Shown one piece after another: positions 5,003 to 22,956 of a stretch of DNA of 64,000 nucleotides (positions are counted from its first letter, which is position 1; the number at the start of each line of letters is the position of its first letter). The DNA comes from a virus (Duplodnaviria; Caudoviricetes), in IMG/VR virus record IMGVR_UViG_3300007512_001664, positions 64,001 through 128,000 of that record. One strand, 5' to 3'. The position numbers and the translations under genes are program-made. Below the pieces are notes generated by a model. The model searched no databases. It saw only the letters and a list, made by a program, of their open reading frames with translations, and had not been told where the DNA came from.

Positions 5003-5965
5003 ATGAAAACGTTTAAAGATTTTTACGAAGATAATGAAATCGCAGTAAAATACCCTTTTGATTTAGGAAACATTGAACCTTCTTTTACTAATTTTCTAGA
5101 TCGGCTAGTTGACATGCGCGCGTCTATTAAAACAATATTAGATTTAGGTGCGTTTGATTTAGGTACACAGCGTACGTTTAGTACGGTTACTGATCCTGCG
5201 ATAAATGCAGCAGTAGATTTTCATGAAGCCCTACAAACATTTGTCAACAGAGATGAAAAGGGTCAAGGTCCAGGTAGTTTTCGACCAAGAGTATATGAAA
5301 CAGAAGAGTTCAAACAACACAATAATTACGATGAGTATGCACAACTAGAAAAATTAAAACGTTCAGCTTTTCGTGATAGGTTTATGGCGAGGAAGGCTGA
5401 AGATAATGAAGCACTAGCCGCAGCAGAAGCTGAGTATTCACGCATAGCGGGTGCGCAGGCAGAAACTGAGTACTGGAAAGCATATAGACAAGCTAAAGAA
5501 GAGGAAGATGAATATGTAGATATTTTACACAGGTCGCCTTTAAGTCGTGAAGCGTTAAAGAATGATGGTAGTGAGGAGTATAAAAACGCCGAAGCCGCAT
5601 ATAACCATCCTAATTTTGATGTAAATGTCTATCTTAATTTAGTTAAAAAGCAGATAGAAAATATTAGAGGAGCTCTGTCTGAAGCTGGCTCTGCCGAGAC
5701 AAAACCTTTCGGCATAATCCCCGGGGAACATTTCTTTCAATTTGGTCAATGGTTAGGATATTTTATTGAGTATACAGGGCCCGATCGCAGCAAGCCTAAT
5801 TGGCATTCATTTAAAGTAACAGTGAACGATCGCGAACGTCGTCTGTGGGTGTATGAAGATAATGGACAGCTAATGGGATGGATGAGGGGGAAAGGGACTG
5901 ATAAAATAACTATATTGGATGAGGATGATCTAGATCAATACCCAGGAATAACGAAAACACACTAA
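5003..5965 (+). CDS. putative internal head protein with T4 capsid-targeting-like leader
   Basis: N-terminus MKTFKDFYE|D resembles T4 IP leaders (MKTFKEF, MKTYQEFIAE). Acidic helical body. Confidence 0.6.
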   Translation: MKTFKDFYEDNEIAVKYPFDLGNIEPSFTNFLDRLVDMRASIKTILDLGAFDLGTQRTFSTVTDPAINAAVDFHEALQTFVNRDEKGQGPGSFRPRVYETEEFKQHNNYDEYAQLEKLKRSAFRDRFMARKAEDNEALAAAEAEYSRIAGAQAETEYWKAYRQAKEEEDEYVDILHRSPLSREALKNDGSEEYKNAEAAYNHPNFDVNVYLNLVKKQIENIRGALSEAGSAETKPFGIIPGEHFFQFGQWLGYFIEYTGPDRSKPNWHSFKVTVNDRERRLWVYEDNGQLMGWMRGKGTDKITILDEDDLDQYPGITKTH

Positions 5966-5996
5966 ATGTTTTGCAATTTAAAAAGATTATACTATA

Positions 5997-6206
5997 ATGA
6001 ATGACATGAGCTTGGAGCGAAGAGTATTTATTTGTTTTGTTATTGTGGTCGCATTTTTTTGTAGTGGGTGTTCGTCAACTAAATGGAAATGGTTACCACA
6101 AGAACCATATATAGACGACCAACGCAGAAGCGAGTATTCTCGACTAGATAAAGACCGTAAAGAAGTTGGTGGTGTTCAAATAACTGTATTAAAAGCGAGT
6201 TTCTAA
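5997..6206 (+). CDS. small lipoprotein (true start probably ATG 6006)
   Basis: RRVFICFVIVVAFFCSG|C lipobox-like signal. TTGCAA...TATAAT promoter at 5971-5998 overlaps the first ATG. Confidence 0.55.
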   Translation: MNDMSLERRVFICFVIVVAFFCSGCSSTKWKWLPQEPYIDDQRRSEYSRLDKDRKEVGGVQITVLKASF

Positions 6207-6602
6207 ATGGAAGATTTTGAAAAATTTGAATTTGAAATGGGTAAGTGGTTCATGAAAGCTGTAGCGTTTATAGGCCTATTCCTCGGAATAATGTTTACCT
6301 GTTGGGCTCACGGTGCTCCCGATAAGCCAATCGATGCTGATATGGAAGTAAAGGTACCTGGATTAGTTTGTCCTTCATGTGCTATCGGTATTAAAAGAAA
6401 TCTTAAAAGAGAAGTCAACGTTAAATATATTGCGTTTGATATTATAAAGGAATTAGTTCTTATTGACTTTGTTGAGATTGAAGGATTTATTCATTATTTA
6501 AAAAATGATAAAATTATAAAATTAGTTAAAGACGCAGGATATGAGGTTTCTTCTATTAAACGCCTCGATAATAATAAACCAAATCGTTATAATAAACCCT
6601 GA
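6207..6602 (+). CDS. exported heavy-metal-associated (HMA) domain protein, CopZ/MerP-like
   Basis: Hydrophobic N-terminal segment, then VKVPGLVCPSCAIGIKRNL (GMxCxxC-like HMA motif) and C-terminal IIKLVKDAGYEV. Confidence 0.75.
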   Translation: MEDFEKFEFEMGKWFMKAVAFIGLFLGIMFTCWAHGAPDKPIDADMEVKVPGLVCPSCAIGIKRNLKREVNVKYIAFDIIKELVLIDFVEIEGFIHYLKNDKIIKLVKDAGYEVSSIKRLDNNKPNRYNKP

Positions 6603-6640
6603 ATATTTACTTTAACGGTAAAGTTTCCTCACATTTCCAA

Positions 6641-6686
6641 AACTTTACTTAAGTAAAGTTCCTAAAGTCACTATTCCTTAAGGAAT
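6641..6686. repeat. two adjacent perfect palindromes (20 bp and 14 bp)
   Basis: AACTTTACTT-AAGTAAAGTT (6641-6660) and ATTCCTT-AAGGAAT (6673-6686) in an intergenic gap. Confidence 0.85.
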
Positions 6687-6712
6687 TTGACCACTATTTC
6701 TGGAGAAAAGGC

Positions 6713-20863: not shown

Positions 20864-21357
20864 GAGATAAAGACGCACATTTAATGATGGAAGCTTTACA
20901 AAAGGTGAATGAAGCTGAGCAAGATACACCTAGCGCTACAGCAGAAGTCCTACGACAAGTGCATAAAGAAATTGATGAGTATATGACTACGGCTGTATTT
21001 ACCGTAGGTGGTGAGGATTTAAAATGGAACGTACTTGCTATTATCAAGCAATATTTGACCGATAACCCGTCCGCCTTGCCGACGACCCCACGTGGATATG
21101 ATGAACCGTCAAATGAACCGTCAAATGATCCGTTGCAACGTGTCGCTAACTTAGCTATAGATAAAATATCAGACGGCGCACTCTCTAACCTTTCAATCAA
21201 TGATATTATTGATGTGTCTATAGAAGATATCGAGTCTGAGACAGGTGAACGACAATATGATCTTAATGAACCTAACACTCGTGATAGAATTAAAAATATA
21301 ATGATTACTGCGTTAACTAAAGATCGAAGCCATTTAATGAAAGGATATGAACGATGA
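20860..21357 (+). CDS. DKDA-leader family protein 5 (KEIDEYMT module)
   Basis: MRDKDAHLMMEALQKVNE|A. Contains a 12-bp tandem repeat at 21101-21133 (EPSN x2). Confidence 0.7.
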   Translation: MRDKDAHLMMEALQKVNEAEQDTPSATAEVLRQVHKEIDEYMTTAVFTVGGEDLKWNVLAIIKQYLTDNPSALPTTPRGYDEPSNEPSNDPLQRVANLAIDKISDGALSNLSINDIIDVSIEDIESETGERQYDLNEPNTRDRIKNIMITALTKDRSHLMKGYER

Positions 21358-21758
21358 AAGATAAAGATGCACAACTAATGATGGAAGCTTTAAAAGAAGC
21401 TGTAGGTGATTATACGGACGACCCAACTGCCGATGATGGTGGAGCAGCAGCCCAGCGCCGCACCGGTGCGTGGTTAAATGCCTATGCACCTCGCGATGAG
21501 GGATTCGGTGGTGACTTTTTTGGCTTTTTTAATAGTATCGAATTTGACGAGGCCGGCGCTCATGCGCTGGTGCAATGGTTAACACAATATAAACAAAACT
21601 ATACAGGCCCAAATGTCGACCATCCAACACGGAAGCCGCCGCATGCACAGGGCTATCAGACTCGAGACCAGTATGACGCGGATGAAGCTGAGCGAGCGCG
21701 AGCGGATCGCGAAGCAGAAGCTCGGCCAGGCAGGCAACATGGCGGCTATCCGGGATAG
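21354..21758 (+). CDS. DKDA-leader family protein 6
   Basis: MKDKDAQLMMEALKE|A. Confidence 0.7.
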   Translation: MKDKDAQLMMEALKEAVGDYTDDPTADDGGAAAQRRTGAWLNAYAPRDEGFGGDFFGFFNSIEFDEAGAHALVQWLTQYKQNYTGPNVDHPTRKPPHAQGYQTRDQYDADEAERARADREAEARPGRQHGGYPG

Positions 21759-21785
21759 CAGGATACAGATAAGATTAATAATACA

Positions 21786-22052
21786 ATGAGAGATAAAGAC
21801 GCACAACTAATTTGGGAAACGCTTCAAGGTGCACCAGCGCCTTTACCAGTTGATAGAAATGGTAAAGAAATACAAGTAGGTGATATAATTCAAGGAGAAG
21901 CTCCTTCTAGGAATGAACCAACACCTGAGTTTGTTGTAGTAGGCGTTAGTCGTGATCCGAATATTGAAGATGCTATAAGTGTAGTTCCACTGGATGTTAA
22001 GACACAATCAGCTAAATGGTTTAGTGTTGTTGATAGTATAGGAGGTAATTAA
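21786..22052 (+). CDS. DKDA-leader family protein 7 (possible SH3/YopX-like beta module)
   Basis: MRDKDAQLIWETL; VDRNGKEIQVGDII. Confidence 0.65.
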   Translation: MRDKDAQLIWETLQGAPAPLPVDRNGKEIQVGDIIQGEAPSRNEPTPEFVVVGVSRDPNIEDAISVVPLDVKTQSAKWFSVVDSIGGN

Positions 22053-22354
22053 TGTTAGATAGAGAACAAGATAAAGCAATTAACGAGTCCATGAAGCAAT
22101 TTCGTGAAGGTCCTCAATTACCTGGTTATACAGACGAGGATCAAGCAGAAGGTCTAGTAAGAGCTAATGTTAATAGATTACTTGCTAACATTGAAAAGAA
22201 CAATCCTCAGAGTGTAGATGAGTTTAAAAGCTATGCTCGAGGTGAAGTATTACGGTGGAGTAAAGAAAATTCACAGGTAACATCTGATACTGCAGAGATT
22301 ATGTATCAGTTACTCTTAAAGAACTCAGAAATTGAACAACCACCTGTTCAATGA
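22052..22354 (+). CDS. divergent leader-family protein
   Basis: MLDREQDKAINESMKQFRE|G. Confidence 0.55.
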   Translation: MLDREQDKAINESMKQFREGPQLPGYTDEDQAEGLVRANVNRLLANIEKNNPQSVDEFKSYARGEVLRWSKENSQVTSDTAEIMYQLLLKNSEIEQPPVQ

Positions 22355-22956
22355 AGATGTTATTCAAAGAATATTGGGACCTTCAAGAAATACTATCTCT
22401 CTTAAGAGTTAAACGTATTAATGATCCTATTCAGCTTATAACAATCTTAGGTACTTCTGTACGCACCGATAAAATGAGCGAAGACACAGCTTATAAAGTA
22501 TTCAATCTATATATTAAGAAGTATTGGTCAGTCCGTTCTACAAAAAATACAAATAAAGAGTATAAACAGAGACTTAGACACTTCTACGATAAACTACACG
22601 CCGAAATACACGGTATCAACGAGAGAATATACGGAACTTATAAACGAGGTTCAAGTACACCAGAAAAACCGGCACCGGCAAAAGTTAACCAATATCAACT
22701 TGATGACATGACTACTGCAGTTATCGATAAATTACGTGATGATTATGATCCAACACAGGGGATTGACTACGAAAATGCCGCCATGTACTTTGTATCATTA
22801 AAACCTTACGTACGAGAGATTGTATACAAAGACTTAATAAACTTGTTAAACACTGCTCCAATGGATTCTAATGAACGTCATGAGATTGCAGAGCTTATGA
22901 AAGCAATAGATAGAATGACATCAGAACCACCTGCAGGTGGATGGCCTTCCGAATAA
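22351..22956 (+). CDS. putative internal head protein with CTS-like leader
   Basis: MKMLFKEYWDLQE|I. Confidence 0.55.
   Translation: MKMLFKEYWDLQEILSLLRVKRINDPIQLITILGTSVRTDKMSEDTAYKVFNLYIKKYWSVRSTKNTNKEYKQRLRHFYDKLHAEIHGINERIYGTYKRGSSTPEKPAPAKVNQYQLDDMTTAVIDKLRDDYDPTQGIDYENAAMYFVSLKPYVREIVYKDLINLLNTAPMDSNERHEIAELMKAIDRMTSEPPAGGWPSE
22731..22794 (+). repeat. dispersed repeat copy 1 (27 bp exact plus 18 bp at 16/18)
   Basis: ATTACGTGATGATTATGATCCAACACA ... GCCGCCATGTACTTTGTA, with the partner at 23808-23853. Confidence 0.9.

Follow-up and report, generated by a model that had tools for sequence, protein, structure and literature searches.

The capsid targeting sequence (CTS) of bacteriophage T4 is the textbook route by which phage proteins are smuggled into a host and the basis of T4 protein-delivery engineering, and most descriptions of it concern coliphages. 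This report describes short leader peptides of similar design, referred to as class-2 leaders, in the genome of a marine, T4-like phage (Duplodnaviria; Caudoviricetes), where they occur at the start, in the interior and at the C-terminus of open reading frames (ORFs). The window, i.e., the whole stretch of 64,000 nucleotides that was analyzed, represents bases 64001–128000 of the complete 200,819-bp virus record IMGVR_UViG_3300007512_001664, which has terminal repeats; positions are those of the window unless given as genome positions.

The best described counterparts are the CTSs of the T4 internal proteins (IPs) IPI, IPII, and IPIII. Both systems have a tag of 9–13 residues at the N-terminus of unrelated proteins, with aromatics at positions 4 and 7 and closing with hydrophobic-x-Glu; in both, the set of cargo genes differs from one related phage to another, and the genome encodes a gp21-type protease and a scaffold. 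Unlike T4, the phage studied here has two interchangeable leader classes, leader copies that are also internal and C-terminal, enzyme-like cargo and, often, F, Y, or M at position P3. Mutational work on the IPIII CTS assigned positions 4 and 7 to targeting and positions 8 and 10 to processing; gp21 cleaves after L/I-x-E, and the CTS-bearing IP-like proteins of T-even phages have been described as basic (PMC9026906). CTS-tagged variable internal proteins are already known in T-even phages. At their variable IP loci, according to the part of PMC2839356 that cites Repoila (1994) and Comeau (2007), close relatives have exchanged their cargo genes but retained the tag, and the shuffling has been linked to promoter-like elements; unlike at those loci, the homology break described below falls where the leader codons end.

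Three further systems bear comparison. T4 Alt has N- and C-terminal propeptides which are both cut by gp21. Engineered fusions placed behind IPIII or its CTS are packaged in T4 and delivered into the host; unlike these, the multi-unit chains found here are natural, recurrent and shuffled between phages. The head and ejection propeptides of phages phiKZ, 201phi2-1, and SPN3US are cleaved after Glu within a short motif, as proposed for the present leaders, and also resemble them in the conserved N-termini on diverged paralogs and the extra cut sites inside the propeptides, but they often exceed 100 residues and carry the motif S/A-x-E, and no account presents them as portable joints of unrelated modules. 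No paper on natural cargo polyproteins in T4-like heads was found in the literature searched, within the limits of that literature, against which the occurrence in a marine lineage, the two interchangeable leader classes and natural cargo ORFs in which several units meet at leader copies appear to be new. The presence of this type of peptide in a far-removed ocean lineage provides comparative evidence for the tag as a portable joint for swapping and chaining cargo. It also gives a rule, based on sequence, by which the injected proteins of uncultured T4-like phages can be predicted (here GNAT-like and DUF6267 enzymes, a lysozyme, and a basic protein), and it raises the question of whether cleavage within the capsid separates the units of natural cargo polyproteins.

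The Class-2 Leader and Its Boundary

The leader follows the consensus (M)-x-[S/T]-F-K-x-[F/Y]-hydrophobic-x(0-3)-E. When 33 copies from this phage and its relatives were aligned on the first aromatic residue, this residue was F in 31/33, the next one K in 30/33, and the second aromatic was present in 32/33. It is followed by a hydrophobic residue, and the Glu lies 5, 6, or 8 residues past the first aromatic. Every copy with a Glu has a hydrophobic residue (I, L, F, Y, M) at position P3, taking W-I-T-E as the site in ORF 12940–13998. The leader shares its register with those of T4 IPII and IPIII, which start M-K-T-Y-Q-E-F-I-A-E|A, and of IPI, which starts M-K-T-F-K-E-F (T4 record AF158101). The residues conserved here (aromatics at 4 and 7, a hydrophobic residue at 8, Glu at 10) are the same ones that determine targeting and processing in the IPIII CTS.

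The pattern [FY][KQ]x[FY] at residues 3–5 is found five times in this genome against 1.1 expected (P = 0.006) and 21 times against 2.2 expected among 687 ORFs of this phage and five related contigs (P = 5e-14). Chance origin of the motif is ruled out by this enrichment together with the boundaries described below. The six N-terminal copies in the genome are on proteins without mutual BLAST hits; copies beyond the window are N-terminal at genome positions 34490 and 35869 and internal in genome ORF 33474–34493. Codons vary from copy to copy, so that conservation acts on the peptide rather than on the DNA, and a DNA-level cassette, as in class 1, is ruled out for class 2. The following N-terminal copies are present in the window:

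5003–5029, + strand: class-2 leader M-K-T-F-K-D-F-Y-E of ORF 5003–5965 (from translation; kept in the ortholog of contig G002; late-promoter-like motif at 4938)
16384–16413, + strand: class-2 leader M-I-P-F-K-Q-Y-I-A-E of ORF 16384–16968 (from translation)
17172–17201, + strand: class-2 leader K-S-F-I-D-F-I-N-E, with a GTG start, of ORF 17172–17768 (from translation)
22351–22389, + strand: candidate off-register leader of ORF 22351–22956 (from translation; the sole homologs are 85–100% identical)

The homolog of 16384–16968 in contig L033 starts M-R-S-L-D-F-I-T-E, and those of 17172–17768 in G002 and at L023:4096 keep a leader of different sequence. A scan of viral contigs with 17765–19141 and 22351–22956 gave no relatives.

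Several comparisons agree that the leader is a portable module with an exact boundary at its Glu. The C-terminal half of ORF 15064–16383 stands alone in about 24 homolog clusters of ~228 aa, most of which start with a class-2 leader (some called ORFs extend upstream of the leader, and one low-coverage match differs at its start); the leader F and the E|A-F-D boundary (E-A-F-D) are invariant in their alignment (A1). The domain is joined to the class-1 leader Q-L-I-F-E-T-Y-V-N-E in contig L004, again at E|A. Judged from this joint, the two classes are interchangeable on one domain, and they coexist in one phage as a reading made earlier from the letters of the window (hereafter the sequence-only reading) had expected.

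The boundary is also visible in DNA. In this genome (G000) and the near-identical contig G002, the genes at genome positions 34490–35656 and contig positions 4104–5171, respectively, encode unrelated proteins behind the same kind of leader, while their flanks are 99% and 98% identical; DNA homology (94%) spans the nine leader codons, ends there and returns at the stop codon. In the distant contig G004/L008 nine ORFs, seven of them contiguous, open with M-K-S-F-K-Q-Y-[I/L]-x-E or a close variant. The Pfam model DUF6267 begins at residue 15–17, just past the leader, in the copies of this lineage, and the DUF6267 copies of phages S-PM2 and HTVC008M have no leader. In the AF2 model of the C-terminal unit of 15064–16383 the leader forms a separate N-terminal helix (residues 3–14), and structural matches begin at residue ~14.

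A class-2-like start, M-L-S-F-T-G-Y-S-N-L-S-E|A, was also observed in the gene upstream of the DUF6267 gene of Pelagibacter phage HTVC008M (L037:3920–4978), and the tag may thus occur in a cultured pelagiphage.

Internal and C-Terminal Copies

The sequence-only reading had listed N-terminal, internal and C-terminal motifs, all of which are present by translation, and had cited T4 leader sequences that agree with AF158101. The internal and C-terminal copies and the units they join are as follows:

15064–15696, + strand: N-unit of ORF 15064–16383, starting M-S-F-E-P-F-I-Q, then a Tat-like stretch R-R-G-F-L (stand-alone 226-aa gene in L023–L026 and L029)
15697–15729, + strand: internal class-2 leader V-S-F-K-D-F-H-N-L-N-E, fusion joint (residues 212–222 of the ORF; V encoded by GTA)
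15730–16383, + strand: C-unit, starting A-F-D-K-P-Y, tentatively GNAT-like (stand-alone in ~24 clusters; AF2 pLDDT 79)
12940–13998, + strand: mosaic ORF with a family N-terminal tag, a variable N-module, an internal leader and C-modules (from homolog search and AF2 model)
13435–13485, + strand: internal class-2 leader M-N-T-F-K-T-F ... W-I-T-E at a module joint (residues 166–182 of ORF 12940–13998)
19106–19126, + strand: truncated joint leader P-T-F-K-Q-F-F at the C-terminus of ORF 17765–19141 (four codons before the stop)
5675–5962, + strand: bare joint L-S-E|A-G-S and an extra 93-aa C-terminal module of ORF 5003–5965 (from comparison with G002)

The fusion in ORF 15064–16383 is also found in the independent assemblies P0050, L027 (73% identical), and L031, and is therefore not an assembly error; recurrence of fusions in independent assemblies rules out such an artefact. 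The 226-aa N-half genes of the relatives end with a leader remnant and four residues and lie elsewhere, between homologs of 17765 and 19143, which indicates that modules were shuffled at the leader, not that neighbors were joined by loss of a stop codon. The start of the N-half, M-S-F-E-P-F-I-Q, has no Glu. Because the joint codon is GTA, the C-unit cannot start at 15697; an internal start there is ruled out, and the in-frame ATG upstream, at 15679, has no promoter-like motif before it.

For the mosaic ORF 12940–13998, homologs were searched among 1.8 billion representatives. The internal motif, including its Met, is conserved in the fused homologs P0028, P0029, and P0034 and is identical with the first residues of the stand-alone proteins P0027 and P0035; the P0027 cluster has five members, all of 188 aa, on contigs of 612–1503 bp. 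The motif is deleted in P0031, P0032, and L027, and a different module follows it in P0042 and P0044. The AF2 model displays confident modules with low-confidence segments between them, one of which holds the motif, a pattern that weakly supports a joint there.

ORF 17765–19141 ends in a truncated copy, and its last four codons and stop overlap the late-promoter-like motif (19131) of gene 19143. The homolog in L023 has the same C-terminal ending. Those in L025 and L026 have a complete joint, F-F-N-E|A-G-S, and then a basic unit of 220 aa, a portion of which forms a separate ORF in L024; the L025 ORF has 672 aa, and its units are separate in L023 and L024. In ORF 5003–5965 the G002 ortholog stops one residue before the joint, where DNA homology breaks, to return after the stop codon.

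Two further cases lie outside the window. Genome ORF 33474–34493 has a 48-aa basic extension ahead of a leader that is N-terminal in contig G003. A 594-aa ORF of G004 contains three leaders, one at the N-terminus and two in the interior, and each of the latter precedes a domain copy of the A-F-D-K-P-Y type; one of the two interior leaders has lost its F-K core and kept I-T-E. Single ORFs composed of units that are independent elsewhere comprise 15064–16383, 12940–13998, the 672-aa ORF of L025 and the 594-aa ORF of G004. All joints consist of hydrophobic-x-E followed by a small residue, the protease specificity being assumed from T4.

The main expectations raised earlier about these ORFs have held in part. 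The halves occur as separate genes (the C-half of 15064–16383 in ~24 clusters, that of 12940–13998 as a 188-aa protein in one cluster of five), and the internal motifs are conserved in fused and stand-alone homologs, with the truncated copy of 17765–19141 complete as a joint in L025 and L026. The proposal that adjacent leader-tagged genes have fused needs amendment: fusion at leader joints stands, whereas the partners are not simply neighbors, the N-half gene being elsewhere in relatives.

Two related features were noted in passing. Window positions 12940–12990 (+) and the homologs P0028–P0048 share a conserved N-terminal tag of their own, M-x-x-F-T-x-x-I-D-K-I-Y-x-x-L-D (in P0046–48 the variant M-K-N-F-K-A-G-I-D-K), and this tag, joined to varied downstream modules, may be a third leader type. 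A 1179-aa ORF of another marine phage contig (L033:46–3585, +) contains four repeated kinase-like modules with linkers bearing L-[N/T]-E-L-K-G-I, which could be protease joints of the same kind.

Proposed Capsid Targeting and Its Alternatives

A gp21-type prohead protease, which the sequence-only reading had expected outside the window, is encoded at genome 6940–7602 (Pfam Peptidase_S77, PF03420; 104 bits, above the cut-off). The gene is flanked by those for a gp22-like scaffold and a gp23-like capsid protein, and the motifs E-L-N-H-P and S-S-R (His, Ser) are recognized when the protein is aligned to T4 gp21. The closest cultured relatives of the capsid propeptide belong to cyanomyoviruses. 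Direct support exists for the presence of this protease, for the motif with its modular behavior and exact Glu boundary, and for the fusion joints.

The reading favored here, with a probability of roughly 0.6, is that the class-2 leader system is this lineage's version of T4 capsid targeting, with swapping of cargo and with cargo chains that are cut apart. The short helical leader would bind the scaffolding core so that the attached protein becomes enclosed in the prohead, and the gp21-type protease would then remove the leader after its Glu. Unrelated cargo genes would be swapped behind the leader by recombination, with class-1 leaders exchangeable for class-2 leaders, and recombination at the leader would also join cargo units head to tail, so that full leaders come to lie inside ORFs (15064–16383, 12940–13998) or remain as C-terminal stumps (17765–19141). 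The product of a fused ORF would most likely enter as a single chain, be cut at its internal hydrophobic-x-E sites and release separate units for injection along with the DNA. Packaging, cleavage, and injection are steps we infer from these comparisons. A role of the leader as targeting signal and propeptide is quite probable; cleavage at the internal copies is a tentative proposal, rated at somewhat less than an even chance.

Several observations weigh against this reading. P3 is often F, Y, or M, a broader choice than the L/I of T4. Alignment with T4 gp23 left the cut site of the phage's own capsid protein ambiguous, as the T4 L-T-E site falls in a gap, and the specificity of the protease is therefore uncalibrated. 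The search for the protease in the related contigs returned no head module or protease, as the contigs are fragments. The C-terminal stumps have no Glu, some tagged proteins (the DUF6267 enzyme and the lysozyme-LysM protein) are not classic head proteins, and the low predicted local distance difference test (pLDDT) values at the 12940 joint may be a mere effect of a shallow alignment.

The strongest competitor grants that the leaders are real capsid-targeting tags and regards the internal and C-terminal copies as recombination scars, the fused proteins staying whole, whether packaged or not. It would suit the confinement of the fused 15064 form to a narrow group of variants (the window, P0050, L027, and L031) against some 24 clusters with the split form, the stumps without Glu at 19106–19126 and in L023, and the members of the 12940 family from which the internal motif has simply been deleted. 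It fits less well with the retention of the full hydrophobic-x-E and small residue at internal copies even where the Met has been replaced by V, P, E, or A, or with the older triple fusion of G004, in which one internal F-K core has decayed and I-T-E has been kept, as expected if only cutting matters. On balance, scars without cleavage are considered rather unlikely.

Still less probable is that the copy inside 12940–13998 serves as an internal translation start, yielding a nested, separately tagged 187-aa protein instead of a cleavage product. The Met at residue 166 is kept in every motif-bearing homolog, the stand-alone P0027 and P0035 begin at it, and T4 genes 21 and 26 have internal starts; however, no promoter-like or ribosome-binding motif precedes 13435, and the explanation is inapplicable to 15697 (GTA) and to the L025 joint, where Pro replaces Met. 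A non-capsid role of the shared peptide, either as a common helix for another purpose (host or membrane binding, translation enhancement) or as a recognition tag for a modifying enzyme, is very improbable: A/T-rich codons after the ATG are common and some of the cargo consists of enzymes which cyanophages place in the replication module, but register and key residues match the T4 CTS, a translation-start effect cannot account for the internal and C-terminal copies, codons vary from copy to copy, and no modifying enzyme was noticed beside the tagged genes, although no dedicated search was made.

Beyond the capsid-targeting reading preferred above, a wider generalization can be formulated, which is regarded as doubtful. 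According to it, the capsid-targeting peptide would be the universal joint of T4-like marine phages, usable at N-terminal, internal, or C-terminal positions and acting both as recombination point and as protease cut site; strings of evolving effectors could be loaded in this way, and in at least one case, that of 17765–19141, removal of the leader would expose a signal of the twin-arginine translocation (Tat) type directing the protein to the periplasm of the next host.

Expression, Cargo, and Neighboring Genes

Across the whole genome 58 genes, against 3.1 expected, have the motif TAAATA[AT]T no more than 30 nt upstream of them; genes for head, sheath, tube, and baseplate proteins are among these, and by this distribution the motif marks putative T4-type late promoters. 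In the region studied its plus-strand positions are 4938, 11059, 12132, 19131, and 19460, which places all tagged genes in gene runs downstream of such a motif:

12132–12139, + strand: late-promoter-like motif TAAATA[AT]T, upstream of the gene run 12158–19141 (from the genome-wide motif count)

This arrangement is consistent with late expression of the tagged genes. The motif mostly lies only 3–10 nt before the ATG, a spacing which suggests that the late messages are leaderless or near-leaderless.

The mature parts of the tagged proteins are not homologous to T4 IPs; BLASTP of the T4 IPs against all ORFs of G000–G005 gave only leader-limited matches with E > 1. Pfam and NCBIfam searches assigned no family to any tagged protein of the window, a sequence profile search of the PDB returned nothing usable, and neither blastn of 12001–20000 nor tblastn of the C-unit of 15064–16383 matched cultured phage records. 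For this C-unit (15730–16383) most top VIA-align rows are GNAT proteins, with Z of 6–7.3, within the noise range of the tool, over residues 14–197; the best Foldseek E value is 3e-3, there is no Pfam match, and the unit is weakly supported as GNAT-like by these model comparisons. The 17172–17768 protein is basic, with a pI of 9.6 for its mature part. Other tagged proteins include a DUF6267 enzyme and a lysozyme-LysM protein.

Tat-like stretches are found in two of the cargo genes: S-R-R-D-F-F-K-L-L-G at 17810–17870 (+), directly after the class-1 leader of 17765, and N-R-R-G-F-L-S at 15085–15150 (+), near the start of 15064. The pattern S/T-R-R-x-F-L-K with a hydrophobic stretch is visible by eye; with the Pfam model TAT_signal, 17765 scores no more than 9.1 bits (E = 1.8) and 15064 gives no match. 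A leader cut in 17765 would put the Tat-like signal at the new N-terminus.

Among the cargo genes there is also a 64-aa ribosomal protein S21 homolog at 16969–17163 (+; PF01165, E = 2e-17), which is adjacent to cargo genes in G002 and L031 as well, and a family-2 glycosyltransferase at 14166–15047 (+; Pfam E = 3e-10) inserted between them. Both this glycosyltransferase and 16384–16968 are absent from G002.

The minus strand of the window encodes a tail tube protein and a gp6-like baseplate wedge. Its first positions (1–1385, −) contain genes for two paralogous proteins of ~330 aa, one of them under a late-promoter-like motif, with type IV pilin-like N-termini (F-T-L-I-E-L-L-V-V). Such N-termini are a hallmark of proteins of Planctomycetes and Verrucomicrobia, which hints at the host, probably a member of one of these groups.

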